Below the pieces are notes generated by a model, which ran no database searches, was not told the origin of the DNA, and saw only the letters and a program-made list of their open reading frames with translations. Below, in pieces: positions 413 through 11,372 of a stretch of DNA of 11,546 bases. Source of the DNA: Samistivirus egole (Duplodnaviria; Heunggongvirae; Uroviricota; Caudoviricetes); the IMG/VR virus record IMGVR_UViG_2974779775_000001, positions 124,108 to 135,653 of that record, one strand, 5' to 3'. Position 1 is the stretch's first letter, and every line of letters begins with the position of its first letter. A program made the position numbers and the translations under genes.

Positions 413-882
413 CAGTCATTCGTAAAGCAGCCCCAATCTAGCCCACATGCAGCCCCGAATCAGCCCATCTTCCTGGAAAATTAGGCAGTCATCGTAAATG
501 GACCCACCATTCGAAGGCCAATGAGTCTGACAGACCTTAGATTCATAGATGAGGTGTCGATTCTCCCTATATACATGCCAGACTTGAGTCTGATGTGAGA
601 AAAGCCCGGCAATTTGAAGAAGCTTTCGTAAACGAACTAGATAGATACACACGCATTATAGGGAAGGGTAGGTAGTATATGTATATAGGGGACAAGGGTA
701 CTCATCACTACCGGCCTTGAATCTCAGCATGTCTTGTCTCTCATGTATATAGCAGAAAAGCCACCCCGAAGGGTGGCTATTTTTGTAAACTCAAATCCTT
801 GCGAAATTGTGGAATCTTCCGGGATTCTGAGGCCCATTCGTAAAGGGAATCTCTGGGAAATTTGAGGCCCCATCGTAAAGGG
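413..882 (+). repeat. Dispersed TCGTAAA direct repeats (5 copies) in non-coding DNA
   Basis: Core at 420-426, 492-498, 626-632, 838-844 and 873-879. Extended pairs: CAGTCAT(T)CGTAAA at 413-426 and 486-498; TGAGGCCCAT/CATCGTAAAGGG-type 20-mers at 828-847 and 863-882. Confidence 0.7.
755..785. terminator. Bidirectional intrinsic terminator
   Basis: Stem AGCCACCC (759-766) / GGGTGGCT (771-778), loop CGAA (UUCG on minus), A-run before and T-run after. Confidence 0.85.
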
Positions 883-969
883 GAAAAAGTCGGACATAGG
901 GGACAAATGACTGATGATGTTCATAGTCATGATGTTAGTTAGACTAGCTAAGGTGTCCGGGTCCGACAT

Positions 970-1058
970 TGAAAGGTCCCTGGGAGGCGGCCGACCTTCC
1001 GCTCATTACCCCTCGCCGAATGACTGATAGGGGTCCCAGGGACACACTTTGTACTACT
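970..1058 (-). ncRNA. Putative structured small RNA (three-way junction)
   Basis: Lies downstream of a consensus promoter with no plausible ORF. 9-bp closing stem 976-984/1035-1043, 6-bp stem 1008-1013/1029-1034, third stem 985-990/999-1003 with one bulge. Confidence 0.5.
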
Positions 1059-1063
1059 CTTCT

Positions 1064-1092
1064 ATGTTAGCAAGAGCGTGAGCCTATGTCAA
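1064..1092 (-). promoter_or_regulatory. Housekeeping-sigma promoter P1
   Basis: TTGACA (1092-1087), 17 bp, TAACAT (1069-1064), with extended TG. Confidence 0.85.
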
Positions 1093-1094
1093 CA

Positions 1095-1328
1095 TCACTT
1101 GGTGTAGTCAGGGAACAGGCGTTCCAACTCCCAGTCTTCCAAGAGATAGGCAGAGTGAGTGGGGGAGGGTACAGAGATACTGACAGCCCTGCCAAACTTC
1201 TTTGCCTGTTCGTTCCAGACCTTACCGATGAAAGAGTTGGGAGTGATTCCCTCCACCTTGAAGTAGAAGCTTCCCGAGAGAACCAGGTCACCCATGGACA
1301 GTTCGATGCTTTCCTTTACCGGCTTCAT
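1095..1328 (-). CDS. Hypothetical protein, 77 aa, probably leaderless
   Basis: ORF co-oriented with the array. ATG sits 7 nt after the TAGACT -10 element with no SD. Confidence 0.75.
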   Translation of the reverse strand: MKPVKESIELSMGDLVLSGSFYFKVEGITPNSFIGKVWNEQAKKFGRAVSISVPSPTHSAYLLEDWELERLFPDYTK

Positions 1329-1334
1329 GTGTTG

Positions 1335-1363
1335 AGTCTACCAGTACAAGAGGGCTCTGTCTA
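1335..1363 (-). promoter_or_regulatory. Promoter P2
   Basis: TAGACA, 17 bp, TAGACT (1340-1335), with extended TG. Confidence 0.8.
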
Positions 1364-1390
1364 CCCACCGGCCAATTTGTCGGACCCCGA

Positions 1391-1400
1391 CCCCGAAGGG
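1391..1400 (-). terminator. Short cassette-end C(UUCG)G hairpin
   Basis: CCC-CGAA-GGG on plus, 7 nt past the stop at 1408. The stem is only 3 bp. Confidence 0.4.
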
Positions 1401-1407
1401 CCGAGCA

Positions 1408-1707
1408 TCAGAAGTCGGGTTCGTCCATCAGGCTGCTGAACTCCTCTTCCATTTCAGCAATGGCCTCAGCCATCCAGAGGGCTCGTTCCTTCCTGCGAAT
1501 TTCACGACGGTGCCAGCGTCCGTTGTCCAGCTCATCCATGTAGCGGTGGGCAAGGATACGGCTGTTACCCATGACTCCACTGTTACGAGTCACGTGACCA
1601 CTCCACCTCTTACGGTGAAGCCCGGAACGGGGAATCGGGATACCCTTGGCACTGTTAGCGTACTCCGTGGCGCGAACCACACTGTACCAGTCACCGACAG
1701 AACGCAT
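1408..1707 (-). CDS. Hypothetical protein, 99 aa
   Basis: GGGAGG SD 6 nt upstream of ATG, own promoter, stop abutting the cassette hairpin. Confidence 0.8.
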   Translation of the reverse strand: MRSVGDWYSVVRATEYANSAKGIPIPRSGLHRKRWSGHVTRNSGVMGNSRILAHRYMDELDNGRWHRREIRRKERALWMAEAIAEMEEEFSSLMDEPDF

Positions 1708-1733
1708 ATACTTCCTCCCTTTTGCTTAGCTTG

Positions 1734-1762
1734 AGTCTACCAGAGTACAAGGACACTGTCTA
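1734..1762 (-). promoter_or_regulatory. Promoter P3
   Basis: TAGACA (1762-1757), 17 bp, TAGACT (1739-1734), with extended TG. Confidence 0.8.
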
Positions 1763-1795
1763 GCTACCGGGCGTTTGTCCGGCCCCGCCAAAAAT

Positions 1796-1820
1796 CCCCT
1801 AAACCCTTTCGGGCTAGGGG
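1796..1820 (-). terminator. Hairpin after the DUF932 gene (GAAA loop on minus)
   Basis: CCCCTA/TAGGGG outer stem plus CCC/GGG inner stem around TTTC on plus. Confidence 0.55.
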
Positions 1821-1839
1821 ACTGGCGAACATTCCTGGA

Positions 1840-2853
1840 TTAGCTGGCCAGGGCCAGGACCGCCTTACGGATGCGGTTCTTCTCGACGTTGACGACCGGG
1901 TCAAAGCCACTTGCGGCGATGAACAGGTTATCGACGTTGCCACCACGCGGCATCCGGTACCAGTCGATACGCTCCGTCAGAGCGTTCAGAGCACCCGCCA
2001 TCGTGCCAGACAGAGACTGCGTGGTCTTGGGACCGTCACCCGTGTCGGTGAAGATGCCCATGAGGATGTCACGCTTCGACTCCCACTTGACCATGCTGCC
2101 CTTGACATCCTTTTCGGGCTTGGGGTACAGGTCCTGAATCAGAGCATCGAACTTGTCCTTCGTGCACTGCACCTCGAACAGAGAGTTCATCTCACGCTCG
2201 AACTCATCCGCGTAGGCGAACGTGATGTTCAGAGCCTCACGCGCAGCAGCCATGCGACCCTCGATGGTCTGCGTGTGGCGCATCTTGAACTGTTGCTTCA
2301 CACCGTTACGGAGTGCAAAGTTCAGCGTGTTCTGACACACGACACGAACCGGGGTAATGCTTGCCTGAACTGCGACAGACCCGTCATGCGACGTGTTGAC
2401 CAGAAGATACAGCTTGGTCACGTCATCGTCACCGACCTTGATGTCACGCCCGATGCTCAGCGAACCGAACACCACACGACCATCCTTGATAGAACCGGCA
2501 GTCTCCCAGGTTCCACCACCCGCAAGGATGCCGTCACCGAAGCCGAACAGCTCTTCGTTCTGGACGACCTTGTACCGCTCGCCCACCGTGGCCAGAACGT
2601 CATTCCGGCCGGTGAAGGGGTTGGTACGGACGACCATGTGAGGCTCCGTCACGAAGTCATAGGTGTCGGACACCAGACCCATGATTTCCTTGATGGACTC
2701 CAGACGCACATCCCAGCCCGAAAGGTGGGCGAGAGACAGCATCTCCGAAGTGGTCAGCTCCCCCTCGAATACGGTTCCGAGGTTGTGCCACGCGGGCTCA
2801 CTGCGAGTGGCGAACGCGACCTGACCCTTGGAACCAATCTCAAGACCGTGCAT
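1840..2853 (-). CDS. DUF932 domain protein (phage/plasmid-like, TIGR03299 family), 337 aa
   Basis: Start MHGLEI with AGGAGG SD 6 nt upstream. Recognised motifs: PAWHxLG, Y.VVQNEE.F, WETAGS..xGR.VF, YLL..TSHDGS, TPVRVVCQNTL, HT. The ORF-track start at 3000 runs through the promoter and was trimmed. Confidence 0.9.
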   Translation of the reverse strand: MHGLEIGSKGQVAFATRSEPAWHNLGTVFEGELTTSEMLSLAHLSGWDVRLESIKEIMGLVSDTYDFVTEPHMVVRTNPFTGRNDVLATVGERYKVVQNEELFGFGDGILAGGGTWETAGSIKDGRVVFGSLSIGRDIKVGDDDVTKLYLLVNTSHDGSVAVQASITPVRVVCQNTLNFALRNGVKQQFKMRHTQTIEGRMAAAREALNITFAYADEFEREMNSLFEVQCTKDKFDALIQDLYPKPEKDVKGSMVKWESKRDILMGIFTDTGDGPKTTQSLSGTMAGALNALTERIDWYRMPRGGNVDNLFIAASGFDPVVNVEKNRIRKAVLALAS

Positions 2854-2911
2854 GTTGTGCCTCCTAGGCAGATTGGTGTTAGGGCCGGTTTCCCTGCCCT
2901 TCGATGTCTCT

Positions 2912-2941
2912 AGTCTAGCAGTAGGCAAGGGGTGATGTCTA
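2912..2941 (-). promoter_or_regulatory. Promoter P4
   Basis: TAGACA, 18 bp, TAGACT (2917-2912), with extended TG. Leader starts ATCGAAGGG at about 2905. Confidence 0.8.
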
Positions 2942-3006
2942 CCCATGCTGCCGGGCTCATGTCCACAATGTCCGATTTGCCCGTTGCCGGACCCGGACAC
3001 ACGAAG

Positions 3007-3024
3007 GCCCCTCCGAAGAGGGGC
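3007..3024 (-). terminator. Cassette-end C(UUCG)G hairpin
   Basis: 7-bp stem GCCCCTC/GAGGGGC, loop CGAA on plus, no U-tract. Confidence 0.6.
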
Positions 3025-3045
3025 TGTGTGCGAGCCTTAGCAGAC

Positions 3046-3486
3046 TCAGTACGCGGCGTCCAGGCAGGAACGCTCCCAGTTGGCCAGGTACATGCCGTCC
3101 AGCTTGGACACATAGGCGTCCACGATGTCCTTCGAGTCCTTGAGACCCAGACCGGTCTTCTCACGGAGCTGCTTGATGCACTGAATCTTCTTGTTGGAAC
3201 CGACCTCACGGACGATGTCCTTGACCAGCTCCGCACCCTGCGCCTTGACGCGCGCCTCGATGTCACGGAGACGGTTCAGCTCGTGGCTGGTGGGCTGCTC
3301 GGCGTCCTGCTTACCGGAACGGTAGCCAGCCTGGTAGCCCTCGGCGTAGGACTTGTCCTCACGGTTCTGGAGTTCCCCGGCGTAGATGGCCTCGAACATG
3401 TTGACCAGCTCCATGGCCTTGTTGAGGCTCATGTGACCCTCGAAGTTGTGGAGGGAGGCGAGGAGCTGAGCGCGAAGGTCCGACAT
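3046..3486 (-). CDS. Protein with C-terminal ribosomal L7/L12 CTD-like domain, 146 aa
   Basis: KKIQCIKQLREKTGLGLKDSKDIVD closely follows the L7/L12 CTD motif K(I/V)xxIKxxRxxTGLGLKEAKDLVE. GGAGA SD present. Confidence 0.8.
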   Translation of the reverse strand: MSDLRAQLLASLHNFEGHMSLNKAMELVNMFEAIYAGELQNREDKSYAEGYQAGYRSGKQDAEQPTSHELNRLRDIEARVKAQGAELVKDIVREVGSNKKIQCIKQLREKTGLGLKDSKDIVDAYVSKLDGMYLANWERSCLDAAY

Positions 3487-3531
3487 GATGTTCTCCGTTT
3501 CTAGGGGCTCCTTGCCCCTTTCGATGTCTCT

Positions 3532-3561
3532 ATCTTAGCAGTACCAAGGGCCCTGTGTCTA
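3532..3561 (-). promoter_or_regulatory. Promoter P5
   Basis: TAGACA, 18 bp, TAAGAT (3537-3532), with extended TG. Confidence 0.75.
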
Positions 3562-3586
3562 CCGGTCGTTTTTGTCCGGGCCCGAC

Positions 3587-3604
3587 AGGGCCCCGAAGGG
3601 CCCT
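3587..3604 (-). terminator. Cassette-end C(UUCG)G hairpin
   Basis: 7-bp stem AGGGCCC/GGGCCCT, loop CGAA on plus. Confidence 0.6.
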
Positions 3605-3608
3605 TCTG

Positions 3609-4049
3609 TCAGAACCTCACACCGACACCGGAACCGTCCAGCGATTCCACGATGCTCTTTGCGGTACGCAGGTCCAGCGTCGGGAAGTGGGCGCGAAGGT
3701 GCTTGATGCACGCAATCTTGCGCTCCAGGTTGTAGTAGCTGAATTCACTGTTCGCCCAGATGGACGCACGCGCGACCAACTTGGTGTGGTCGTTCTCAGC
3801 GGCATAGGTGGTCAGACGCTCCCCGTGCGCCTTACCCTGTCCGTAGCCGTCGTTGAAGGCGGACTCCACACGCCCGTTCGCCTCCTTACGGGCCAGGTCC
3901 CAGGCGTTGTTCTCCACCTCGTTGACCCGCTCCAGGTGGGCACCGTAGATGAGGTTGGCCACCGTGAACGCCTTCTTCAAGCTCATCTTGACACCGTTGG
4001 CGTTGAAGATACGCATGATGCGGGCCTCGTCCAGGGTGAAGATGCTCAT
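3609..4049 (-). CDS. Second, more diverged L7/L12 CTD-like domain protein, 146 aa
   Basis: RKIACIKHLRAHFPTLDLRTAKSIVE motif. GGAGG SD. Same length and layout as 3046-3486. Confidence 0.75.
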   Translation of the reverse strand: MSIFTLDEARIMRIFNANGVKMSLKKAFTVANLIYGAHLERVNEVENNAWDLARKEANGRVESAFNDGYGQGKAHGERLTTYAAENDHTKLVARASIWANSEFSYYNLERKIACIKHLRAHFPTLDLRTAKSIVESLDGSGVGVRF

Positions 4050-4094
4050 GGTAGCCTCCAGTCTCAGGGAGCTTGTCTCCCTTTCGATGTCTTT

Positions 4095-4123
4095 AGTCTA
4101 CAGGACTAGTGAGGCAGATACAA
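4095..4123 (-). promoter_or_regulatory. Promoter P6
   Basis: TTGTAT, 17 bp, TAGACT (4100-4095). Confidence 0.7.
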
Positions 4124-4151
4124 CCCCTCTTCAAAGTGTCCGGGCCCGACA

Positions 4152-4175
4152 CGGGCCCCGAAAGTCAAGGGCCCG
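4152..4175 (-). terminator. Cassette-end hairpin (10-nt loop variant)
   Basis: CGGGCCC/GGGCCCG stem, loop CGAAAGTCAA on plus, 6 nt past the stop at 4182. Confidence 0.55.
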
Positions 4176-4181
4176 GTAGGG

Positions 4182-4517
4182 TCAAGGGTTGGTGTGTCCC
4201 CTTTTCAGTAGTATCTGTTCGATGATGAATTTCGAATCCATCACGCGATTGAATTCATCATCTGAGCGGCTTTCCGTCCTGCCTGCCCATGCATTGAGAA
4301 TGGAGATGATGAACTGAAACATCACCGCCTGCACAGGCTCAGGATAGGTCGAAAGCAGATAGGCGAATGCATGAGGGTCGAATGACCGCTTATCCATTTC
4401 GTCAATCAGCTTATTGGCCAGACGCTCATACGACGTAGGCCGTGGCGTTACGAGTCGCGCACCCTCATACATGTCAGGTGCGATGATGCTTGTTCGTTTG
4501 AAGGGACTACGCGCCAC
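4182..4517 (-). CDS. Hypothetical protein, about 111 aa (start uncertain)
   Basis: 3' part of track ORF 4182..4859. GTG at 4517 overlaps the upstream stop and follows GGGGGAG. Alternative ATG at 4472. Confidence 0.65.
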   Translation of the reverse strand: MARSPFKRTSIIAPDMYEGARLVTPRPTSYERLANKLIDEMDKRSFDPHAFAYLLSTYPEPVQAVMFQFIISILNAWAGRTESRSDDEFNRVMDSKFIIEQILLKRGHTNP

Positions 4518-4671
4518 CCTCTCCCCCAAAGTCTTCCGTTGTACCGTATCCGTCTGAGACGCTGACAGACAGGCCCAGCACCTTTGCCATGAACTCTGCC
4601 GTAGCAGTAGCAAAGGGCCAGGCCGTGTCGTGAGCGTCATCATCGGGCGTGTCGATTTCGATGATGACCAT
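4507..4671 (-). CDS. Small acidic hypothetical protein, 54 aa (not in the ORF track)
   Basis: Hand translation MVIIEIDTPDDDAHDTAWPFATATAEFMAKVLGLSVSVSDGYGTTEDFGGEGGA*. AGGA upstream. Fills the gap between lsr2 and the next gene. Confidence 0.7.
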   Translation of the reverse strand: MVIIEIDTPDDDAHDTAWPFATATAEFMAKVLGLSVSVSDGYGTTEDFGGEGGA

Positions 4672-4680
4672 GACTCTATC

Positions 4681-5199
4681 CTATCGTGCGTGAACCTCGA
4701 CGTCCATACCGAGCACCACCGGGGAGCCACAGCCGCAGTGCGACAGGCTGTAACCGCACTTGCACACCTCACGCTCCGAGAGACGGATGCGCTTGCCACG
4801 GTAGTAAGCCGTGTACTCGGTACGGTTCGAACGGGTGGGCTCGGCGTGCGGACGGACATCCTTACCGGTCACCTTGACGTGCACACCGGGCGCAGCGGGC
4901 TTGACCTCCGGGTTGTCTGCCTTGTAAGCGGCCAGCACCTCAGCCGACAGACGACCACGGGACGACACGGTGAGACCCTTGGAAGCGGCCCACGCACGCA
5001 CCACCTTGGCATCGAACTGCCCGGCCTTGGGAGCGGCCTTGACGACCTTGCGAGGCGTGGCGTCGGTGTCAGCGAAGACCTTACCCGACTTCTCAGCCTC
5101 AGCGATGGCCTCGTATGCGGCAGCGCTCATCCGGCCACGGGATTCCTTGGCCAGGCCCAGAGAGACAGCGTACGCGCGACGGGTCATGTTGACGTTCAT
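4681..5199 (-). CDS. lsr2: Lsr2-type DNA-binding protein with a duplicated RGR module and Cys-rich tail, 172 aa
   Basis: FDAKVVRAWAASKGLTVSSRGRLSAEVLAAYKA matches the Lsr2 C-terminal DNA-binding domain. A second degenerate copy is at the N-terminus (RRAYAVSLGLAKESRGRMSA). The tail contains CKCGYSLSHCGC. Confidence 0.85.
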   Translation of the reverse strand: MNVNMTRRAYAVSLGLAKESRGRMSAAAYEAIAEAEKSGKVFADTDATPRKVVKAAPKAGQFDAKVVRAWAASKGLTVSSRGRLSAEVLAAYKADNPEVKPAAPGVHVKVTGKDVRPHAEPTRSNRTEYTAYYRGKRIRLSEREVCKCGYSLSHCGCGSPVVLGMDVEVHAR

Positions 5200-5226
5200 G
5201 GGGTTTCCTTCCCTCGGTGTGCACTC

Positions 5227-5255
5227 AGTCTATCGGATTGAAGGCGGAGAGGCAA
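5227..5255 (-). promoter_or_regulatory. Promoter P7a (proximal lsr2 promoter)
   Basis: TTGCCT, 17 bp, TAGACT (5232-5227). Confidence 0.7.
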
Positions 5256-5296
5256 GCCCCGGTGCAGAGGTTGGTTTCCCTCCCCTTCATGTCTCT

Positions 5297-5326
5297 AGTA
5301 TAGAGGACGTAACAGGGTCCTGTCTA
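5297..5326 (-). promoter_or_regulatory. Promoter P7b (distal lsr2 promoter)
   Basis: TAGACA, 18 bp, TATACT (5302-5297). Confidence 0.75.
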
Positions 5327-5367
5327 CAGTCCTAAATGTCCGATTTGCCCGAAGTCCGGGCCCGACA

Positions 5368-5383
5368 TGCCCCCGAAGGGGCA
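5368..5383 (-). terminator. Cassette-end C(UUCG)G hairpin
   Basis: 6-bp stem TGCCCC/GGGGCA, 5 nt past the stop at 5389. Confidence 0.6.
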
Positions 5384-5388
5384 AGGGG

Positions 5389-6123
5389 CTAAGCCTTTCG
5401 GCGCTTAGAGACCTTGGACGCGAAACGGATATCTGCCTTACCGAAGATGCAAAGGCCACACGTTACGCACGCGCCACCCTTTTCGGTAATGAGAGGAATG
5501 CGCTTGGCATTCTCAGGGCAGATAGCCCCAGGCTTACCAGTTTCGGTAAGCATGAATTCCTTACCCTGTTCGTGAGTCTCAGAGAGATAGGCAAGGCGGA
5601 CCGAAGGGAATTCCTTCTTTGTCGCCAGCGCCTTTTCCTCATTCTCACTGTCCACACTCAGATAAACAGAGAGGTTTTCGTGCCCTACGATGTGACGCAC
5701 GTACTGGAATGACCTAGTGTAAATCCAGAATTGCACATCCTGGAAAACCTCAGCCATTCGAGCGATATTCTGTGCGTATTCCGCAGAGAAGATATCGCCG
5801 TCAGCGTGCCAGCGAAACAGCTTAGGCGCGTCACGCTTTTCACAGTCAGCCCTGAAACTCTCAATCATTACTGCGAGATTGAGAAACTGGTCCTCGTTAG
5901 GGTCATTGAGAATGGCCCAGTTGTTGAGAACCAATTCACGATATGCAGGATACTGCCTTTCGAGCTTACCTGCATAGCATACGGTCTCACAGACCTTTGT
6001 CGCGCCGGGGCAGGAAAACGCCTTTCCACTCGGAATGGAGAATGCGTTTTTGATGACCGACTGTTCCCCTCGCTTGTTGGCAAGGTTGGCAGTCTTACGG
6101 TCATTCGTGCGCTTAAGCGGCAT
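5389..6123 (-). CDS. GP88-family Cys-rich phage protein, 244 aa
   Basis: Start MPLKRTNDRKTAN with GGAGG SD. Motifs CPGATxxCxxxCYA, FRWHADGD, FWIYTRS, NLSVYLSVD, CPEN and CVTCGLC are typical of the actinophage GP88 family as I recall it. Confidence 0.75.
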   Translation of the reverse strand: MPLKRTNDRKTANLANKRGEQSVIKNAFSIPSGKAFSCPGATKVCETVCYAGKLERQYPAYRELVLNNWAILNDPNEDQFLNLAVMIESFRADCEKRDAPKLFRWHADGDIFSAEYAQNIARMAEVFQDVQFWIYTRSFQYVRHIVGHENLSVYLSVDSENEEKALATKKEFPSVRLAYLSETHEQGKEFMLTETGKPGAICPENAKRIPLITEKGGACVTCGLCIFGKADIRFASKVSKRRKA

Positions 6124-6418
6124 TGCGTTCCTCCGAGCTGTAGGGCAATTCAGTGTTACGGACAATGGTACCGAGCGAAACAGCGTTGATTGTCTTGTGT
6201 CCAAGAATCCACGCCATTACGACACGGTGCTGACCATTGTAGACCGTGCCATTCTGAAAGTTGATAGGCATCTGAATTCCGTCACGCTCGCATGACTCAA
6301 TGAATTCATCGCTCATCTCAAAGAAAAGCTGAGTGAAAAGGTCCATCGTGGACTGACCTTCCTCGCGGTCTGCGAAGTCGGCACGGGCAACGATGGCTTC
6401 AACGCTCAGCTTCCTCAT
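6113..6418 (-). CDS. ParB/Srx-like domain protein (paralog 1), 101 aa, probably leaderless
   Basis: SC..DGIQMPI...NGQHRV..A..LG pattern resembles the ParB/Srx G.HR catalytic core. ATG at 6418 lies 8 nt after TATACT. The stop overlaps the GP88 start by 11 nt. Confidence 0.7.
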   Translation of the reverse strand: MRKLSVEAIVARADFADREEGQSTMDLFTQLFFEMSDEFIESCERDGIQMPINFQNGTVYNGQHRVVMAWILGHKTINAVSLGTIVRNTELPYSSEERNAA

Positions 6419-6425
6419 GTGTTCG

Positions 6426-6454
6426 AGTATAGCAAGACATGCGGACGTAAACAA
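6426..6454 (-). promoter_or_regulatory. Promoter P8
   Basis: TTGTTT, 17 bp, TATACT (6431-6426), with extended TG. Confidence 0.75.
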
Positions 6455-6505
6455 GCCCCTAGACGAATGTCTGAAATGTCCGTTGTCCGCCCCGGACATG
6501 ACTGA

Positions 6506-6523
6506 GGGCCCCCGAAGGGGCCC
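6506..6523 (-). terminator. Cassette-end C(UUCG)G hairpin
   Basis: 7-bp stem GGGCCCC/GGGGCCC. Confidence 0.6.
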
Positions 6524-6527
6524 GGTG

Positions 6528-6599
6528 TCAGAGAAAGATGATTGCGAGAAAGAACACAATCACCACGTACCAGAGAAAGGCGGTCAGACATTCTCGCAA
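6528..6599 (-). CDS. Putative transmembrane micropeptide, about 23 aa (start uncertain)
   Basis: (M/L)RECLTAFLWYVVIVFFLAIIFL*. TGA lies 4 nt from the cassette hairpin. TTG start at 6599, or GTG at 6647. Confidence 0.4.
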   Translation of the reverse strand: MRECLTAFLWYVVIVFFLAIIFL

Positions 6600-6661
6600 A
6601 CCTCCCGGTACCAAGAGTAGTGCGTGTACAGGTAGAAGTGAAGCCACTCAACGAAGTGCAT
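6584..6661 (-). CDS. Aromatic-rich micropeptide, 25 aa
   Basis: MHFVEWLHFYLYTHYSWYREVCENV*. AGGAG SD 5 nt upstream. ATG is 2 nt after the upstream TAA. Confidence 0.55.
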   Translation of the reverse strand: MHFVEWLHFYLYTHYSWYREVCENV

Positions 6662-6663
6662 GT

Positions 6664-6987
6664 TTACTCCTGACAGAGAGGCAGGCCCAAGTCGTCCTGC
6701 ATGTCCAGAAAGTCCGAGTTGAAGATTTCAAGGTACGTGCCACCCTTGATTTCTTCGATACCGAGCATGTATGCCACGATGAGCCTGTGACATCCCTCGT
6801 GAATCATGTTCTGCTCCTCATCATAGCAGATGGGAGAGACGATTCCAAGGGTCTGGCATGAGTCCATGAACTCATCCGACAGCTCAGACAGCTTGCGCAA
6901 GAGAAGTTGTTCACGAGTGAGACCAAGAGCCTCGGCGTCGTAGAACAGAGCGTTGTCGATGAGTGCCTTCACACTGTACATCTTCAT
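6664..6987 (-). CDS. ParB/Srx-like domain protein (paralog 2), 107 aa
   Basis: SDEFMDSC..LGIVSPI....HEGCHRL..A..LG. Aligns by eye with 6113-6418. Confidence 0.75.
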   Translation of the reverse strand: MKMYSVKALIDNALFYDAEALGLTREQLLLRKLSELSDEFMDSCQTLGIVSPICYDEEQNMIHEGCHRLIVAYMLGIEEIKGGTYLEIFNSDFLDMQDDLGLPLCQE

Positions 6988-7010
6988 TGCTTTCCCCTTT
7001 CGCTAGTACG

Positions 7011-7040
7011 AGTCTACTGCACTACCGGGCCCCATGTCAA
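7011..7040 (-). promoter_or_regulatory. Promoter P9
   Basis: TTGACA, 18 bp, TAGACT (7016-7011). Confidence 0.85.
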
Positions 7041-7071
7041 CACATCTGAAAAATGTCCGGGGCCGCCAAAA

Positions 7072-7089
7072 GGGGCCCCGAAGGGCCCC
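7072..7089 (-). terminator. Cassette-end C(UUCG)G hairpin
   Basis: 7-bp stem GGGGCCC/GGGCCCC. Confidence 0.6.
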
Positions 7090-7113
7090 CAAGGGGTCAA
7101 GCCGTTGTTGTGA

Positions 7114-7386
7114 TTAGTCCTCGCTGGTGTCCTTCTGGCTCACCAGCTTCGCACGACCGAGCAGAGAGGCGTCAGCCTCCTTCCACTTACGGACCGGGCG
7201 ACCGGTGCGCACGCGGGGGAAGCGGGCCAGGATGGCACGGGCGCGGGTCTCGTCGGCCTCCAGGATGTCGAACCGCTGGAAGGGAGCGACGTTGGACGTG
7301 GCACCGAACTCGATGTCCACCCCCTGGACAATCATGGCCACACGGAGGGCGAGAGCGTCACGGGCGGGAACGATACCGGCAATCAT
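7114..7386 (-). CDS. Hypothetical protein, 90 aa
   Basis: GGAG SD 5 nt upstream, GC3-rich codons, followed by the cassette hairpin. Confidence 0.8.
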   Translation of the reverse strand: MIAGIVPARDALALRVAMIVQGVDIEFGATSNVAPFQRFDILEADETRARAILARFPRVRTGRPVRKWKEADASLLGRAKLVSQKDTSED

Positions 7387-7499
7387 GTGAACTCCACTGC
7401 TAGAAGTAAGCTGGGGTATGAAGTTGTCAGAGACTTTGGCAGGAAGGGAAAAACCTCACGTTGCGAGGCCCTGTGGCCTGTCCCCTTGTGCTTAGCTAG

Positions 7500-7529
7500 A
7501 GTCTAGCAGGCTGACCTACTCGCAGTCAA
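7500..7529 (-). promoter_or_regulatory. Promoter P10 (-35 lies inside the upstream CDS)
   Basis: TTGACT, 18 bp, TAGACT (7505-7500), with extended TG. Confidence 0.8.
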
Positions 7530-7698
7530 CCAGGTACTCGGGCTCGTCGTCCTCGGAGACGGTCCAGATGTCCGCCAGCCATCCGCTACGGATGACGCCA
7601 GCCGACACGAACTTGTGCGGCTCAGCAGCCTCACGGACAGCGTCCGCGTGCTCCTCTTCGGAGATGATGCTGTAGCCCTCGGGAATCTCGAACGTCAT
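7516..7698 (-). CDS. Small acidic hypothetical protein, 60 aa
   Basis: AGGAG SD, own promoter and leader hairpin. Confidence 0.8.
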   Translation of the reverse strand: MTFEIPEGYSIISEEEHADAVREAAEPHKFVSAGVIRSGWLADIWTVSEDDEPEYLVDCE

Positions 7699-7743
7699 GA
7701 TTGCTCCTCTCTTGGGGAGGTTTCCCTCCCTTTCGATGTTCTA

Positions 7744-7772
7744 AGTCTACATGAGAGATGGGGCGGACGCAA
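7744..7772 (-). promoter_or_regulatory. Promoter P11
   Basis: TTGCGT, 17 bp, TAGACT (7749-7744). Confidence 0.75.
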
Positions 7773-7813
7773 CACCCAATATTCGTTAGGCTGCCTAAGT
7801 TGTCCGGGTCCGA

Positions 7814-7823
7814 CCCCGAAGGG
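7814..7823 (-). terminator. Short cassette-end C(UUCG)G hairpin
   Basis: CCC-CGAA-GGG on plus, 3-bp stem, 8 nt past the stop at 7832. Confidence 0.4.
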
Positions 7824-7831
7824 CCAGACTG

Positions 7832-7990
7832 TTAATCTCCCATGTCATCCAAGTGAGCATCGGGAGCGGGCTCGAACTCAAGGAAGGTGTCTTCGAAAAG
7901 CACCATCCATGCGTAGCCCTCACGGTTGTCAGGATTGCACTTACCACGGTGCATGTCACCCGTGGCAGCACCACACTCAATGCAGGTCAC
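7832..7990 (-). CDS. Small CCHC-type Zn-binding candidate, 52 aa (not in the ORF track)
   Basis: GTG start overlaps the upstream TGA (GTGA), GGAGG SD. Sequence MTCIECGAATGDMHRGKCNPDNREGYAWMVLFEDTFLEFEPAPDAHLDDMGD*. Confidence 0.75.
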   Translation of the reverse strand: MTCIECGAATGDMHRGKCNPDNREGYAWMVLFEDTFLEFEPAPDAHLDDMGD

Positions 7991-8205
7991 TCGGCCTCCT
8001 TGATGTCCATGGCAACCAGCATGTCAACCCTGCTGACAGTGAGGGCAATCTCTCGCCCGTCCTTGTCAGTGAAGTTGAAGGTACTTGCCTTGGCAGCGAC
8101 CGCCTTGCGCCACGACTCGTTCGTCTCCTCCGCACTGTGCGAAGTCAGAGTGAACAGAACCGGCTTGTCACGGTGGGCCAGGTGAACAGCAACGCGAGTA
8201 GCCAT
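7987..8205 (-). CDS. Hypothetical protein, 72 aa
   Basis: GAGGA SD, own promoter and leader hairpin. Confidence 0.8.
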   Translation of the reverse strand: MATRVAVHLAHRDKPVLFTLTSHSAEETNESWRKAVAAKASTFNFTDKDGREIALTVSRVDMLVAMDIKEAE

Positions 8206-8250
8206 GATGCATCCTCTCTTCCGGGAGTTTTTCTCCCTTTCGATGCTCTA

Positions 8251-8279
8251 ACTCTACACCATCAGACAGACAGAATCAA
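8251..8279 (-). promoter_or_regulatory. Promoter P12
   Basis: TTGATT, 17 bp, TAGAGT (8256-8251). Leader ATCGAAAGGG starts at 8244. Confidence 0.75.
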
Positions 8280-8297
8280 GACTGTCGGGCCCCGACA

Positions 8298-8315
8298 CGG
8301 GCCCCGAAGGGCCCG
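8298..8315 (-). terminator. Cassette-end C(UUCG)G hairpin
   Basis: 7-bp stem CGGGCCC/GGGCCCG. Confidence 0.6.
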
Positions 8316-8326
8316 GCGGGAAGGTG

Positions 8327-8611
8327 TTACTTCTTGGCCTTGGCGCGCTTGTTGCTGTGGTTGCCGTTCATGAGGGCCGTGAAGTCCAGCATGATGTTCT
8401 GCTTGAAGTTGGTCGCTCCGTGGAACTTGCCGTCCTGGTCACGGATGACGATGCGGACCTCGGTGGAGTCGCTGCCCGGAGTGGTCTTCCAGGTCTCCAG
8501 ACGGATGCTGTAGGTGCTCTTGGAGCCCTTGACCTTGAAGCCCTCGGAGATGGTGACGCTGGAGACGATGTTGTGGTTGACGTCGGTCGCCTTGCGAAGG
8601 GTAACAGCCAC
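8327..8611 (-). CDS. Hypothetical basic protein, 94 aa
   Basis: GTG start with AGGAG SD, GC3-rich codons. Confidence 0.8.
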   Translation of the reverse strand: MAVTLRKATDVNHNIVSSVTISEGFKVKGSKSTYSIRLETWKTTPGSDSTEVRIVIRDQDGKFHGATNFKQNIMLDFTALMNGNHSNKRAKAKK

Positions 8612-8663
8612 GGTGACTCCTAAGTCTCTGCTAGGGGTTTCTTTCCCCCTTGCTGATAGCTAA

Positions 8664-8692
8664 AGTCTACACGACTCAGCCGACAAGTACAA
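8664..8692 (-). promoter_or_regulatory. Promoter P13
   Basis: TTGTAC, 17 bp, TAGACT (8669-8664). Confidence 0.75.
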
Positions 8693-8731
8693 CCCATGAA
8701 ATTATGTCCGAAATGTCTGTCGGAGCCGGAC

Positions 8732-8749
8732 AGGGGCCCGAAGGCCCCT
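8732..8749 (-). terminator. Cassette-end C(UUCG)G hairpin
   Basis: 7-bp stem AGGGGCC/GGCCCCT, 4 nt past the stop at 8754. Confidence 0.6.
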
Positions 8750-8753
8750 CCCG

Positions 8754-9080
8754 TCAGTCTGCCAGGATGGCGGCCAGACGCTCACGCTGCGCACGGTCAT
8801 GCGCACCGGAACGGCTCGCGTACTCCTGGAACTCGGAGACGGTTTCGACGGAGAAGTGTCCGTTTTCGTCCAGCTTGGCCACACGAACGGTGTAGCGTCG
8901 GGCGTAGTCGTCGTTCCGCTCCGAAGAGACGAAGAACATGGACTGTCCGTCGATGGTGCTGTAGCACATGTCCGAAATGCGCGACTTCCACCACCGCATG
9001 GTAGAAGCGGAGAAGAAGTGGTTGCCCTGGTCCTTGGCGATGGCCTTGGCGTCCTCGATGCTGAACAGAACCTTACGCAT
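8754..9080 (-). CDS. Phage hypothetical protein, 108 aa
   Basis: Start MRKVLFS with GAGGA SD. The HFF...TMRWW.SRI...FFVSSE...RRYTVR pattern recalls a widespread uncharacterised phage family. Track start at 9224 trimmed. Confidence 0.8.
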   Translation of the reverse strand: MRKVLFSIEDAKAIAKDQGNHFFSASTMRWWKSRISDMCYSTIDGQSMFFVSSERNDDYARRYTVRVAKLDENGHFSVETVSEFQEYASRSGAHDRAQRERLAAILAD

Positions 9081-9109
9081 TTGGGGTTCCTCTCCCTCGG
9101 TGTAAGACG

Positions 9110-9138
9110 AGTCTATCAGAGACAAGGGACATGCACAA
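9110..9138 (-). promoter_or_regulatory. Promoter P14
   Basis: TTGTGC, 17 bp, TAGACT (9115-9110). Confidence 0.75.
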
Positions 9139-9176
9139 CACCTACCGGGCCTTTTTGAAAATGTCCGACCCCGACA

Positions 9177-9190
9177 GGGCCCGAAGGCCC
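9177..9190 (-). terminator. Cassette-end C(UUCG)G hairpin
   Basis: 5-bp stem GGGCC/GGCCC, extendable by GACAG/CTGTC. Confidence 0.55.
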
Positions 9191-9195
9191 CTCTG

Positions 9196-9510
9196 TCAGG
9201 ATTCGATGGACTTCTGACGCTCACGCGGGAGCGCAGCCACCTCCGTGATGATTTCGGTCAGACGCTCCTCATCGACCCACCCCTCAACGGAGTCATCCAA
9301 CACGCCATTGTCGTCAGGCATGTTGCCCTCGGGGTCGAAGATTCCGCATTCGACTCCGTAGGTTCCGTACGCCTTGACGACCGACAGACGCCATCCGTTC
9401 TCGTAGTTGACGTAGAAGTGGATGCCCGTTCCGTTCTCACCGTGACGCGGACCGAAAGTGACCTTTGCACCCGGAGCAACGTCACGCGCGATGTTGGCAA
9501 GCTCACTCAT
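9196..9510 (-). CDS. Phage hypothetical protein, 104 aa
   Basis: Start MSELANI after purine-rich GAAGGGAAAG. Contains NGWRLSVV..YG...E and DDSVEGW..EE motifs. Track start at 9570 trimmed. Confidence 0.8.
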   Translation of the reverse strand: MSELANIARDVAPGAKVTFGPRHGENGTGIHFYVNYENGWRLSVVKAYGTYGVECGIFDPEGNMPDDNGVLDDSVEGWVDEERLTEIITEVAALPRERQKSIES

Positions 9511-9541
9511 GGTCTTTCCCTTCGTCGTTTTCGTTAGCACT

Positions 9542-9570
9542 AGTCTAGCAGTCGGATTTTTGAGTCGCAA
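9542..9570 (-). promoter_or_regulatory. Promoter P15
   Basis: TTGCGA, 17 bp, TAGACT (9547-9542), with extended TG. Confidence 0.75.
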
Positions 9571-9631
9571 CCCCTCAGACCGATTTTTTAGTCTGTGGGC
9601 AAAATGTCTGTTTTTTTAGTCGGGGGCGGAC

Positions 9632-9643
9632 GCCCCGAAGGGC
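9632..9643 (-). terminator. Cassette-end C(UUCG)G hairpin
   Basis: 4-bp stem GCCC/GGGC. Confidence 0.45.
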
Positions 9644-9651
9644 TAGCCGCC

Positions 9652-9963
9652 TTACTCCCAGGGCCGGTAGTCAGACCAGTCGGAACCCTCGTGATTCTGA
9701 ATTTCGACGGTCACCGTGTCACCCAAACGGTGATTCACGCTGTACAGGGAACGGCTGGAGCCCTGGTAACGCCTCTGGGCCTTTGCCCACTTGACCAGCT
9801 TCTCAGCCTGCTTACGGGAACGGCAGGGCCATGCCTCGATGCACTCTCCGTAGTTGTACCACCATCCGCCCTCTTCCGAGCCACCACAGGCCCGGTCCAC
9901 CAGATGAATGTTCACCCAGTGCTTGTTCCGACGACGCTGACCCATACGCAGACCCTTGGCCAT
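9652..9963 (-). CDS. Phage hypothetical protein (GGxEEGGWWY motif), 103 aa
   Basis: AAGGAGG SD. VNIHLVDRACGGSEEGGWWY and a terminal RPWE recall an uncharacterised phage family. Confidence 0.85.
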   Translation of the reverse strand: MAKGLRMGQRRRNKHWVNIHLVDRACGGSEEGGWWYNYGECIEAWPCRSRKQAEKLVKWAKAQRRYQGSSRSLYSVNHRLGDTVTVEIQNHEGSDWSDYRPWE

Positions 9964-9987
9964 TTCCGCCTCCTTGTTGATGACCTA

Positions 9988-10016
9988 AGTCTAACAGAAG
10001 CCTAGGACAGATTCAA
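9988..10016 (-). promoter_or_regulatory. Promoter P16
   Basis: TTGAAT, 17 bp, TAGACT (9993-9988), with extended TG. Confidence 0.75.
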
Positions 10017-10071
10017 TATGCTTGCCAGGATGTACAGTGATTGTCGGACCCGGACAAAAAAATTCGCCTAC

Positions 10072-10132
10072 AAATTCACCCCTCTTTTCTAAGGGAATCT
10101 GGGAAGAAATCCTTGAAAAGAGGGGTGAATTT
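10072..10132. repeat. 18-bp perfect inverted repeat (long hairpin)
   Basis: AAATTCACCCCTCTTTTC (10072-10089) / GAAAAGAGGGGTGAATTT (10115-10132), with inner AAGG/CCTT pairing. Confidence 0.85.
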
Positions 10133-10318
10133 TTTCTGCGAATGTTTTTCGAAGGTCAGATTGCGACTTTTTCGTCTTTTCCTGCCTCACAAAGGCAGTA
10201 TTTCGAATGTGTCGCCTCGATTGCGACAAAGCCGCTTTCCTGATACCTCGAAAGAAGGTTGGCCAGAAGGGACGAGTTGAAAACCGGTGTTTTGGATTTC
10301 AGCCCGTCCCTTTCCAGC

Positions 10319-10376
10319 AAAAGGGACATACTGTGGAATCGAACCTGAGAAACAGCCTTTTTCCGCATTATGCCCC
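10319..10376 (-). terminator. Stem plus UUUU element after the 48-aa gene
   Basis: On minus, GGGGCAUA (10376-10369) pairs with UAUGUCCC (10330-10323), followed by UUUU. Confidence 0.5.
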
Positions 10377-10386
10377 CCCCTACTGC

Positions 10387-10533
10387 CTAGGCCAGTTCGG
10401 ACATGTGCGGGTAGGCGTCCCAGTCGAAGCCGTCCACACGGTCACCATCCTGCACATCGGACACAGGCACCGTGATGGTGGTGAAGACACCAGCGTCGCT
10501 GGCCTGCTCAAGAAGGGTACGGAGGTCAGTCAT
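10387..10533 (-). CDS. Small acidic hypothetical protein, 48 aa (not in the ORF track)
   Basis: MTDLRTLLEQASDAGVFTTITVPVSDVQDGDRVDGFDWDAYPHMSELA*. AAGGA SD and own promoter. Confidence 0.75.
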   Translation of the reverse strand: MTDLRTLLEQASDAGVFTTITVPVSDVQDGDRVDGFDWDAYPHMSELA

Positions 10534-10564
10534 GTTCTTCCTTCTTCCTCTTGGTGATAGCTCT

Positions 10565-10593
10565 AGTCTAGTCTACGTACATGGGGGATGCAA
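10565..10593 (-). promoter_or_regulatory. Promoter P17
   Basis: TTGCAT, 17 bp, TAGACT (10570-10565). A second overlapping TAGACT is at 10575-10570. Confidence 0.75.
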
Positions 10594-10653
10594 GCCCTAG
10601 ATGTTCCGGGAATTTTCAGCGCCTATCGTACACGCGCGGGGGAAATGTGGGGT

Positions 10654-10781
10654 ATGTACTTAATGTACCTTAATAGGGCCTATGTACCATATGTCCGATA
10701 TGTACCATGCGTACCTGTATGTACCCATATAGCAGGATATATCCCCTATCCTCCCTATGTACCGAATGTCCGATATGCCCG
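10654..10781 (+). repeat. Degenerate tandem repeat ATGT(A/C)C with about 9-bp period
   Basis: ATGTAC at 10654, 10663, 10682, 10700, 10719 and 10757. ATGTCC at 10691 and 10766. GCGTAC at 10709. Confidence 0.75.
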
Positions 10782-10896
10782 TTTGTCGGGGACGGACTGT
10801 TACACATCCGTTATCTAAGAAACCCTGTTTTGGTGGTTTGGCGGGCCCTGACTAGGGCATGATGTAGGCATAGCCACTACGGACCAGGGAGACACA

Positions 10897-11358
10897 GTGA
10901 ACGCCACCACCGCCACCCACACCAACACCCACACTGACGGCCGGACCTGCACCTACAGCACGGAAAAGGCCACAAACGCCCGTGTGCGTAGGCAGGTGCT
11001 CGCTACGGTCCTGTACCTGGCTAGCCTTACGGGAGACAGTGACGGGGCCACATGGGCTAACTGTGTGGGGTGTGGGGAGCGTGCCCACGTGGGTGGTACG
11101 CCTAGGGCCATGGACACGTTCAACCTTGGCCACGTGCACAGTGATGCTGAGGGTGGCATGTGGTGCGTGTGCAACTTCCTTCCCCTGTGCAGGCAGTGCA
11201 ACGTAGACATGGGCAAGGAACACATGATGGACCTTCTCACCCCGATGTATGACAATCGGGACATGTGGGACGGTAAGCTCCTCAAGGACACCGGGGCTGA
11301 GGTTGCACCCATGGACAACCGAGGACGTGCCCGCTGGAACGCCCCCACGGGCCGCTAA
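10897..11358 (+). CDS. HNH endonuclease (Zn-binding), 153 aa
   Basis: CVGC ... LGHVHS..EGG...VCNFLPLCRQCN gives the CxxC-H-N-CxxCN HNH signature. GTG start with AGGGAGA SD. Confidence 0.85.
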   Translation: MNATTATHTNTHTDGRTCTYSTEKATNARVRRQVLATVLYLASLTGDSDGATWANCVGCGERAHVGGTPRAMDTFNLGHVHSDAEGGMWCVCNFLPLCRQCNVDMGKEHMMDLLTPMYDNRDMWDGKLLKDTGAEVAPMDNRGRARWNAPTGR

Positions 11359-11372
11359 GCGGCTTTGAGAGT

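Follow-up and report, generated by a model that had tools for sequence, protein, structure and literature searches.

The terminal repeat of Samistivirus egole, a cluster BE1 Streptomyces phage, is punctuated by a short GC-rich palindrome, here called the dyad, that lies at essentially every boundary between its small early transcription units. In the 11,546-nucleotide stretch of DNA analysed here (the window; positions 124,108 to 135,653 of IMG/VR virus record IMGVR_UViG_2974779775_000001) the dyad occurs 16 times, always between genes and, apart from the two ends of the array, where the hairpin that closes one unit meets the promoter of the next. From its sequence and placement we propose, with a probability of roughly 0.45, that the dyad is the operator of a symmetric dimeric protein and serves the co-ordinate control and insulation of the early units. 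That a protein recognises the dyad on duplex DNA is the firmer part of this proposal and is probable. The control of gene expression in cluster BE phages lacks a published description, and the dyad provides one short, testable sequence at essentially every early-unit boundary; the identity of its reader would reveal how the takeover genes of a large lytic Streptomyces phage are switched on or off.

The window matches 87 Streptomyces phage records, all of cluster BE, with the closest (Leo04, Peebs and others) at ~95% identity. Its bases 206-11546 are identical to both ends of the 135,653-bp virus record, which has direct terminal repeats (DTRs), and the window is thus the right copy of an 11,341-bp DTR together with 205 bp of unique DNA. 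Cluster BE phages are lytic and have the longest terminal repeats known for actinobacteriophages; those of BE1 are ~11 kb long with 20-25 open reading frames, and no motif is mentioned in the paper announcing them (PMC5764925). A literature search likewise found no paper describing the dyad. In the close relative Leo04 nearly all genes of the repeat lie on the minus strand.

Copy number, consensus and confinement of the dyad

The pattern GTCSGNNNCSGAC has 13 exact matches in the window, against a mean of 0.06 and a maximum of 1 in 200 shuffles. Allowing one mismatch raises the number to 18; three of the five additional matches (1777, 2986 and 7055) are genuine, since they keep the same hairpin and promoter register as the exact copies, and the other two are chance matches, one within a coding sequence (3839) and one overlapping the 7802 copy (7808). 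All 16 genuine copies are intergenic, so that both the coordinates and the counts in the first-pass annotation of this DNA, which had listed 13 exact and three one-mismatch copies between genes, are borne out against the 0.06 expected. The whole genome contains 27 exact copies, 13 in each copy of the DTR and one just outside the left DTR (genome 11401-11413), which falls within the coding 3' end of gene 24 (ESDPD) and is probably a chance or coding match. The central 113 kb of the genome holds no copy (a reversed-pattern control also gave 0), so the motif is not equally frequent elsewhere in the genome, and in the BE1 phages Evy and Mildred21 the dyad is likewise confined, with none in the central genome.

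A logo built from 47 BE1 sites (the present phage, Evy and Mildred21) defines a conserved unit of 15 bp, TGTCSG-SSS-CSGACA, outside which the information is at background. Compared with the 13-bp length first described as invariant, the conserved unit is longer by a T before and an A after. G1, C3, G5, C9, G11 and C13 are invariant, and the unit ends in TG/CA steps (T at -1 in 37/47 sites, G1 and C13 in 47/47 each, A14 in 40/47). The three central nucleotides, earlier taken to be free, are almost always G or C. The promoter-proximal half-site is better conserved than the other half.

Position of the dyad between hairpin and promoter

The early units are read from the minus strand. Each begins with a promoter of the form T(T/A)Gnnn-17/18-TAGACT, often followed by a leader with AGACATCGAAAGGGAG, and continues through one to three small genes to a stop codon, after which come a GC-rich hairpin (in most cases closed by a UUCG loop), the dyad, an A/T tract and the next promoter. 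The promoters are of host type (TTGACA/TAGACT) and are predicted to be sigma-HrdB-type; a regular-expression search of the window finds 17 such promoter-like sequences on the minus strand, and an independent, stricter scan finds 12 promoter-like sites where 5.6 are expected. GC-rich UUCG hairpins stand at 13 of the 16 junctions, and the gap from hairpin to dyad runs from -7 to +12 nt. None of the dyad-adjacent UUCG hairpins is then followed by a T-run, the place of which is occupied by the dyad, and the pairing of GC hairpin and U-tract that marks an intrinsic terminator is not found at them. On the other side, the gap between dyad and -35 element is 4-48 nt for the 14 copies with a promoter; the first-pass annotation had given generally 10-60 bp. 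Besides lying upstream of the next promoter, the dyad is directly 3' of the hairpin at the gene end.

The association with both neighbours was counted across six phages in a census of the intergenic gaps of 20 nt or more, 103 in all. Of 85 junctions with hairpin and promoter, 84 carry a dyad (77 called with both features, and 7 hairpin-or-promoter-only calls that we judged to be misses of the simple detectors); the dyad is missing at 8/8 hairpin-only and 6/6 promoter-only junctions. In the window, the promoters at 7529 and 1092 belong to units without a dyad. In Coruscant, a phage of a sister genus with a dyad of its own, a spacing of exactly 46 nt separates the end of the dyad from the -10 element in 13 of 16 cases, and the distance to the hairpin varies. 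There is good evidence that the dyad is part of the upstream architecture of the promoter, and weaker evidence that it depends on the face of the helix: the BE1 gaps to the -35 element cluster at ~4, 14, 26, 35 and 46 nt, with mostly unrelated spacer sequences within a class, and when a period of 10.5-11 bp is tested (Rayleigh), the window yields p ~0.01-0.02 and Evy and Mildred21 yield p <0.001, results that are not independent because the units are orthologous between the phages.

Taken in the order of minus-strand transcription, with "downstream" meaning downstream on that strand, the array opens with an exact dyad with flanking T and A at 10784-10798, which has no preceding UUCG hairpin and whose first promoter lies ~190 nt downstream at 10593. 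The exact copy at 10042-10056 follows a long hairpin with a U-run and has its -35 element (TTGAAT-17-TAGACT) 26 nt downstream. Three exact copies then abut their hairpins with a gap of 0: 9618-9632, after a UUCG hairpin, with the -35 element 48 nt downstream and one CAGACAT unit between; 9162-9176, after hairpin 9176-9191, with the -35 element 24 nt downstream; and 8718-8732, after hairpin 8732-8749, with the -35 element 26 nt downstream and AGACAT/CGGACAT units between. At 8283-8297 an exact and perfectly complementary copy stands 1 nt from hairpin 8298-8315 and only 4 nt from its -35 element. The first bases of the exact copy at 7801-7815 form the base of hairpin 7808-7829 (an overlap of 7), with the -35 element 29 nt downstream, and the one-mismatch copy at 7054-7068, which has a GGCGG arm, is separated by 3 nt from hairpin 7071-7090 and by 14 nt from a TTGACA -35 element.

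Further along, the exact, perfectly complementary copy at 6484-6498 lies 8 nt from hairpin 6506-6523 and 30 nt from its -35 element, with CGGACAT and CAGACAT between, and the exact copy at 5353-5367 lies 1 nt from hairpin 5368-5383 and 27 nt from its -35 element, with GGGCAAATCGGACAT between. The exact copy at 4137-4151 comes 1 nt after a GGGCCC...GGGCCC hairpin with a longer loop and 14 nt before its -35 element; that at 3573-3587 abuts hairpin 3587-3604 (gap 0) and precedes its -35 element (TAGACA) by 12 nt. Two one-mismatch copies follow, one at 2985-2999 (hairpin 3007-3024, gap 8; -35 element 44 nt downstream, with the 9-bp units CGGGCA, CGGACA and TGGACA between) and one at 1776-1790 (hairpin 1802-1815, gap 12; -35 element 14 nt downstream). 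The exact, perfectly complementary copy at 1378-1392 overlaps the base of hairpin 1386-1405 and has its -35 element 15 nt downstream, with a leaderless mRNA predicted from that promoter. The last dyad of the array, an exact copy at 954-968, comes after a structured, gene-less transcript region and is followed by no recognisable promoter.

Some further features of these junctions deserve mention in their own right. The sole canonical intrinsic terminator of the window, which is bidirectional, lies at 759-778 (AGCCACCC-TTCG-GGGTGGCT, with an A-run before and a T-run after) and implies an unannotated transcript of ~200 nt that would lie between the last dyad (967) and the terminator. At two early promoters (window 1328-1345 and ~6418-6440; tagactcaacacATG, tatactcgaacacATG) the -10 element is only 6 nt before the ATG, from which leaderless mRNAs are predicted. 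A 13-bp palindrome, TTAGGCAGCCTAA or TTAGCTAGTCTAA, stands 3 nt after two dyads that both have ACC as their centre (window 7786-7798 and 939-951); it is also found in Mildred21 and appears to resemble part of the actinobacterial iron box. A leader hairpin, GGGAGG-GAAA-CCTCCC (window 7715-7730), lies inside the conserved 5' leader CATCGAAAGGGAGG and precedes the real ribosome-binding site; it is kept across three genera, with counterparts in Evy, Mildred21, Wofford and Coruscant, and could have a role in translation or RNA stability.

Probable recognition as duplex DNA

Positions 4 and 10 of the dyad are complementary in 3 of 16 copies here, 9 of 16 in Evy and 15 of 15 in Mildred21, the other positions being fixed; the first description had position 4 and its partner vary independently between C and G. 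Minimum-free-energy RNA folds of all 16 units show no self-folding of the dyad (0-2 self-pairs) and no common structure, and no Rfam family matched. The neighbouring hairpins keep their shape while their stem sequence varies from copy to copy, whereas the sequence of the dyad stays constant, which is the signature of a trans-acting reader. Its half-sites are inverted, their spacing is fixed and sequence rather than pairing is conserved, as in an operator of a symmetric dimer. The original suggestion of a dimeric protein that reads double-stranded DNA, rather than of RNA pairing, is supported by the non-pairing of positions 4 and 10, by the lack of an RNA self-fold and by the constant sequence.

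It is very improbable that the dyad acts in RNA, be it as a small second hairpin, as a terminator part that replaces the U-tract, as an antitermination box or as a processing site. Such a role would suit the constant placement of the dyad -7 to +12 nt from the 3' side of the hairpin and the lengthening of the hairpin stem that its first bases often bring about, but the first dyad has neither an upstream gene nor a hairpin. All Mildred21 copies are perfect palindromes, and positions 2/12 and 4-5/9-10 change symmetrically between genera; in 13 of the 16 copies of the window, however, a C-C or G-G clash sits in the middle of the 5-bp stem while the other positions are invariant, the folds reveal neither self-pairing nor a common fold, Rfam offers no match, and some copies in the other genera have their asymmetric centre flipped.

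Genus-specific dyads in sister genera

Karimac and Wofford (BE2, Karimacvirus) and Coruscant contain zero copies of the BE1 dyad, and the same place is taken there by other GC-rich palindromes. In BE2 it is (R)GCCG-CCC-CGG(Y), present 14-15 times per repeat and usually followed by AAAAGATCTT; in Coruscant it is GGCGCC-C-GGCGCC, present 16 times per repeat, mostly flanked by t...a and followed by a second dyad, TAGATG-N-CATCTA. Allowing for variation at the centre and edge, the two read GCCG-SSS-CGGY and GGCGCC-S-GGCGCC, and both are restricted to the DTR, with none in the central genome. Their asymmetric centre is occasionally flipped, which argues against an RNA signal, since such a signal would not tolerate the flip.

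S. griseus ATCC 10137 was the isolation host of Evy (BE1) as well as of the BE2 phages Karimac and Wofford. Because BE1 and BE2 phages of one host strain carry different, genus-specific dyads, a shared host factor is a poor explanation of the dyad, and a co-evolving, phage-encoded reader is favoured. Each genus having its own version of the dyad, site and reader would be swappable.

Host regulators and the flanking 9-bp repeats

Several dyads are accompanied by additional units that the first-pass annotation had listed as ATGTC(C/T)G half-sites. These units are present, but they are better read as a second, separate element, namely direct repeats of 9 bp that match the binding site of the Streptomyces regulator BldC. 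The extra CRGACAT units lie at 2969, 5337, 6468, 6477, 8705, 8714, 9605, 10692 and 10767, all on the minus strand; at six junctions they lie between dyad and promoter in a single orientation, and 11 of 15 orphan 7-mers are intergenic. The repeat has 6 pairs of GKACA cores at a distance of 9 bp where 0.1 would be expected, and the centre of the genome, ten times its size, has 4. Between dyad and promoter, again on the minus strand, the repeats read CGGGCA-aat-CGGACA-ttg-TGGACA at 2956-2984, GGGCA-aat-CGGACAT at 5331-5352, CGGACAT-tt-CAGACAT at 6462-6483 and AGACAT-tt-CGGACAT at 8699-8717. A further array, at 10600-10783 (minus strand), extends from the first dyad to the first early promoter and consists of ~ten head-to-tail [A/T-rich]-SG(G/T)ACA(T) units at 9-bp spacing that end in ...GGTACAT or CGGACAT. 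GGGCAAATCGGACAT-type arrays are also found in BE2 and Coruscant, though the dyads there differ, and the 10600-10783 array is conserved in them.

BldC binds head-to-tail 9-bp repeats AATTXXXX(C), for which CAATTCGGACAATTCGGACA is an optimised site; it tolerates a G-to-T change giving CGTACA, and replacing AATT by GGCC abolished binding (PMC5859096). The flanking CGGACAT arrays agree with this in their 9-bp head-to-tail arrangement, in the A/T-rich tract before CGGAC and in GGTACA, which corresponds to the tolerated G-to-T change, whereas the dyad consists of inverted half-sites and, in place of the AATT that BldC needs, has G/C at its centre. The 10600-10783 array resembles a multi-protomer BldC filament site and could be one; alternatively, it could be an origin- or end-related iteron array. 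Through these BldC-type repeats, the early expression of the phage may be linked to a developmental regulator of the host.

This resemblance also bears on whether the reader of the dyad itself comes from the host, be it BldC or some other regulator of Streptomyces, so that early expression would follow the physiological state of the host. We consider this quite improbable. Early promoters have to be active at a time when no phage protein has yet been made, each dyad half carries the CGGACA core of the optimised BldC site CAATTCGGACAATTCGGACA, and true BldC-type 9-bp repeats flank six dyads, with an array before the first promoter. The loss of BldC binding on changing AATT to GGCC nevertheless argues against a reading of the G/C-centred, inverted dyad by BldC, since the mutant oligonucleotide that lost binding resembles the dyad centre plus half-site and since BldC needs head-to-tail rather than inverted repeats (PMC5859096); BE1 and BE2 phages from one strain, moreover, differ in their dyads, and those of BE2 and Coruscant are without GACA. 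A search of the phage genome for HTH_17, the family of BldC, found nothing at E<=0.1.

Candidate phage-encoded readers

Among the proteins of the repeat, Pfam and PHROGs searches of 21 DTR proteins and the HNH protein found no DNA-binding family other than an Lsr2 domain, and all PHROGs matches were of unknown function; a language-model atlas gave nothing usable for two small DTR proteins. The Lsr2-like protein (window 4681-5199, minus strand) is an unlikely reader, its DNA-binding domain being from an AT-rich-binding family. It is without the usual Lsr2 oligomerisation domain and has two Lsr2 DNA-binding repeats of the RGR type (SRGRMS and SRGRLS) and a C-terminal Cys-rich tail (CKCG...HCGCG). 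Searches for related loci with this protein and with the ribonucleotide reductase yielded no Streptomyces locus.

Outside the repeat, the annotation of Leo04 lists one helix-turn-helix (HTH) protein and one WhiB. The HTH protein is encoded beyond the window, at genome 55343-55858, and each of the five comparison phages has an orthologue (90-52% identity). In its structural model (pLDDT 82) residues 60-122 match MerR-family DNA-binding domains in a VIA-align wide search, with Z scores of 8.5 for SCO5550, 6.9 for CueR, 6.4 for GlnR, 6.4 for TipAL and 5.8 for RacA, and the fold also resembles the DNA-binding domain of the pSK1 Par protein; a Foldseek search of the model against the PDB gave no match at E<=0.001. 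The putative recognition-helix region is the most divergent part of the protein between the three genera, with Arg74 invariant and the C-terminus highly conserved. That this MerR-like protein is the dyad reader is doubtful and is put forward as a lead only. Its N-terminal small beta-barrel resembles Tudor-like RNA-polymerase-binding domains (UvrD/PcrA C-terminus, CarD) at Z ~5, too weak a likeness to rely on.

RacA, which is itself MerR-like, recognises a GC-rich palindrome of 14 bp by way of its terminal TG/CA steps (PMC4914108), and the dyad, too, is a GC-rich palindrome with terminal TG/CA. The ram sites of RacA in Bacillus subtilis (TGACGCCGGCGTCA, PMC4914108) are like the dyads GC-rich palindromes of 14-15 bp with TG/CA ends in many clustered copies, and the MerR-like winged helix of RacA is the fold class of the only recognisable HTH protein of the phage. 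The ram sites differ from the dyads in that their role is in the anchoring of the chromosome rather than in transcription and that they have no link to promoters.

The comparison raises the alternative that the dyads are centromere-like or anchoring handles that, once bound by a protein, tether, pair or compact the two genome ends, perhaps in DNA entry, replication or the handling of concatemers, effects on transcription being a by-product. The clustering of many GC-rich, TG/CA-ended palindromes, as with the RacA site TGACGCCGGCGTCA at 25 regions (PMC4914108), their confinement to the terminal repeats in all three genera and the resemblance of the candidate's MerR-like fold to the RacA and pSK1 Par DNA-binding domains speak for such a role, which we still regard as improbable, because anchoring would require neither the hairpin-promoter position seen at 84/85 junctions nor the tie to the -10 element in Coruscant. 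Two small ParB-like genes lie in the repeat, but their products are ~100 aa long, with no HTH detected and no Pfam ParB match.

A further alternative, that the dyads are clt-like recognition sequences for an FtsK-like translocase of the phage, comparable to the 8-bp repeat GACCCGGA of TraB in Streptomyces plasmids, is hardly credible. Recognition of the 8-mer GACCCGGA (pSVH1) by TraB is published (PMC5133688), and the 8-mer lies within 4 of 16 dyads; it depends on the variable centre, however, and the other 12 dyads are without it. TraB sites are direct repeats and the dyad arrangement is inverted. As to the enzyme, one phage gene is annotated as an FtsK-like translocase, but its product has no FtsK/SpoIIIE or gamma-domain Pfam match, only weak AAA matches.

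Cassette exchange at the dyads

Compared with Leo04, the cassettes at 1100-1711 and 9200-9613 have been replaced. Homology to Leo04, Evy and Mildred21 tends to end near dyads: 10 of 24 ends of high-scoring segment pairs lie within 35 nt of a dyad centre, where the fraction of the window that is this close to a dyad predicts ~2.3, and five of the pairs start at -7 to -13 nt from a dyad centre, which is the dyad edge. As such breakpoints could follow from any conserved block, we treat them as a property of the dyad and not as its purpose. The boundaries double as cassette-exchange points, which is relevant to the evolution of BE phages.

A similar organisation is known from the PeSL (promoter-early stem-loop) cassettes of T4-type phages (Arbiol et al. 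2010, PMC2839356). There, small genes without assigned function stand in a row in a plastic region, each equipped with a strong early promoter of host type, an AT-rich tract upstream of the -35 element and a GC-rich stem-loop, and relatives differ by insertion, deletion or replacement jointed in repeated regulatory blocks. A strong sigma-70-type promoter with an AT-rich tract and insertions, deletions and replacements between close relatives are all found here. PeSLs are without an extra conserved palindrome, however, whereas here a genus-specific dyad of 13-15 bp lies between stem-loop and promoter, and the present array is confined to a long terminal repeat.

The dyad might accordingly be mainly a recombination joint for the gain, loss and swapping of cassettes, by homologous or microhomology exchange or by a dedicated enzyme, with regulation secondary or absent. 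This is unlikely, although several observations fit it: the breaks of homology just described, the restriction of dyads to the joints of complete units with the array bounded by them at both ends, the documented shuffling of PeSLs (PMC2839356), and the RecA-like, RuvC-like and Cas4-type recombination proteins that the phage encodes. Homologous exchange needs no palindrome and would not fix eight dyad positions while the hairpin stems drift, breakpoints are expected at any conserved intergenic block, and the fixed distance of 46 nt to the -10 element in Coruscant points to a promoter function. A recombinase core site, the alternative offered in the first-pass annotation, appears unlikely as well, since the arms are only 6 bp around 3 bp, far shorter than the ~9-13 bp of known core sites, and since the annotation of Leo04 (274 features) contains no integrase, serine recombinase or other site-specific recombinase that could be the cognate gene.

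Proposed role and known analogues

We favour regulation by a dimeric reader, which would proceed as follows. Each cassette would comprise a promoter of the sigma-HrdB type, between one and three small genes and a UUCG hairpin that lacks a U-tract, with a dyad at each meeting of hairpin and promoter. The reader, probably phage-encoded and of winged-helix (MerR/RacA-like) type, would read the terminal TG/CA steps and, once accumulated, would fill all 16 junctions per repeat copy at once. Bound upstream of the -35 elements, it would modulate the early promoters together, most likely by shutting them off; bound just after a weak hairpin, it would block read-through between cassettes.

Some known systems are comparable. 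The KorB operators (OB) of plasmid RK2 are 13-bp palindromes, ~12 per replicon, at variable distance upstream of promoters, and mediate co-ordinate repression. KorB is a ParB-family HTH protein, which the short ParB-like proteins of the phage, with no HTH detected, do not match. The stoperators of cluster A mycobacteriophages (L5 gp71 sites) are 13-bp sites with many copies in short intergenic gaps and with subcluster-specific versions that match each subcluster's own protein; the bound protein blocks transcription through them. They are asymmetric, oriented with transcription, spread genome-wide and read by the immunity repressor of temperate phages, whereas the dyad of the lytic BE phages is symmetric and confined to the DTR. 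SPO1 and T5 have terminal repeats of 10-13 kb with host-takeover or pre-early genes and many promoters for host RNA polymerase; we know of no comparable repeated palindrome described at their unit junctions. Both have been named as analogues of the BE repeats in terminal-repeat size (PMC5764925).

A number of points weigh against operator function as proposed. No RNA-seq was found among public runs, and the promoters, 3' ends and timing of the early units are predictions only. The early promoters are near consensus and need no activator, and operators 4-48 bp upstream of the -35 element are in an unusual place for a simple repressor. The six promoter-only junctions without a dyad would escape control, and at the ends of the array the first dyad has no preceding hairpin and the last no recognisable following promoter. 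Helical phasing, which might have served as proof of an activator function, has been downgraded: the dyads of BE2 fall into two spacing classes, 14-15 and 21-22 nt, which lie 7 bp and not one helical turn apart, and with orthologous, non-independent units the phasing could come partly from the shared ancestry of promoter modules. As to the reader, no DNA-binding fold was found among the DTR proteins, and the case for the HTH candidate consists of its fold class and pattern of divergence, the Z scores being middling for all but one match.

An extension of the operator reading, which is improbable, is that hairpin and dyad together form a protein-switchable boundary, where bare hairpins, having no U-tract, would leak and dyads filled by a MerR/RacA-like phage protein would insulate the units or tether both repeats. 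If so, one protein and one genus-specific 15-mer would reprogramme, and perhaps physically organise, both genome ends, and through the arrays of host BldC sites the first promoters would be coupled to how far the hypha has developed. As compact, insulated expression cassettes, the units might also find use in the engineering of Streptomyces.

Other features of the repeat and the genome

No genes lie between the last dyad and the physical left end of the repeat, but TTTACGA(A)TG(G/A) occurs there at least five times with similar flanks (window ~420-880); these copies could be packaging, entry or replication signals. Outside the repeat, a membrane protein gene at genome ~13.2-14.1 kb is dense in TGTC/GACA, which is probably explained by the many Val-Thr pairs in its 3' half.

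Two paralogous early proteins of 146 aa, encoded on the minus strand at window 3046-3486 and 3609-4049, each have a stretch resembling the L7/L12 ribosomal protein C-terminal domain (in one paralogue with a Pfam E of 2.7e-8) and may act on translation factors. At genome ~12-19 kb, adjoining the left repeat (as seen in Leo04), the genes for ThyX, a nucleotidyl transferase and four glycosyltransferases are clustered, and genes for dCMP deaminase and MazG lie elsewhere in the genome, away from this cluster; the combination suggests hypermodified DNA. The dyads of BE2 and Coruscant are all-G/C, so that a modification of thymidine would leave them unaffected.

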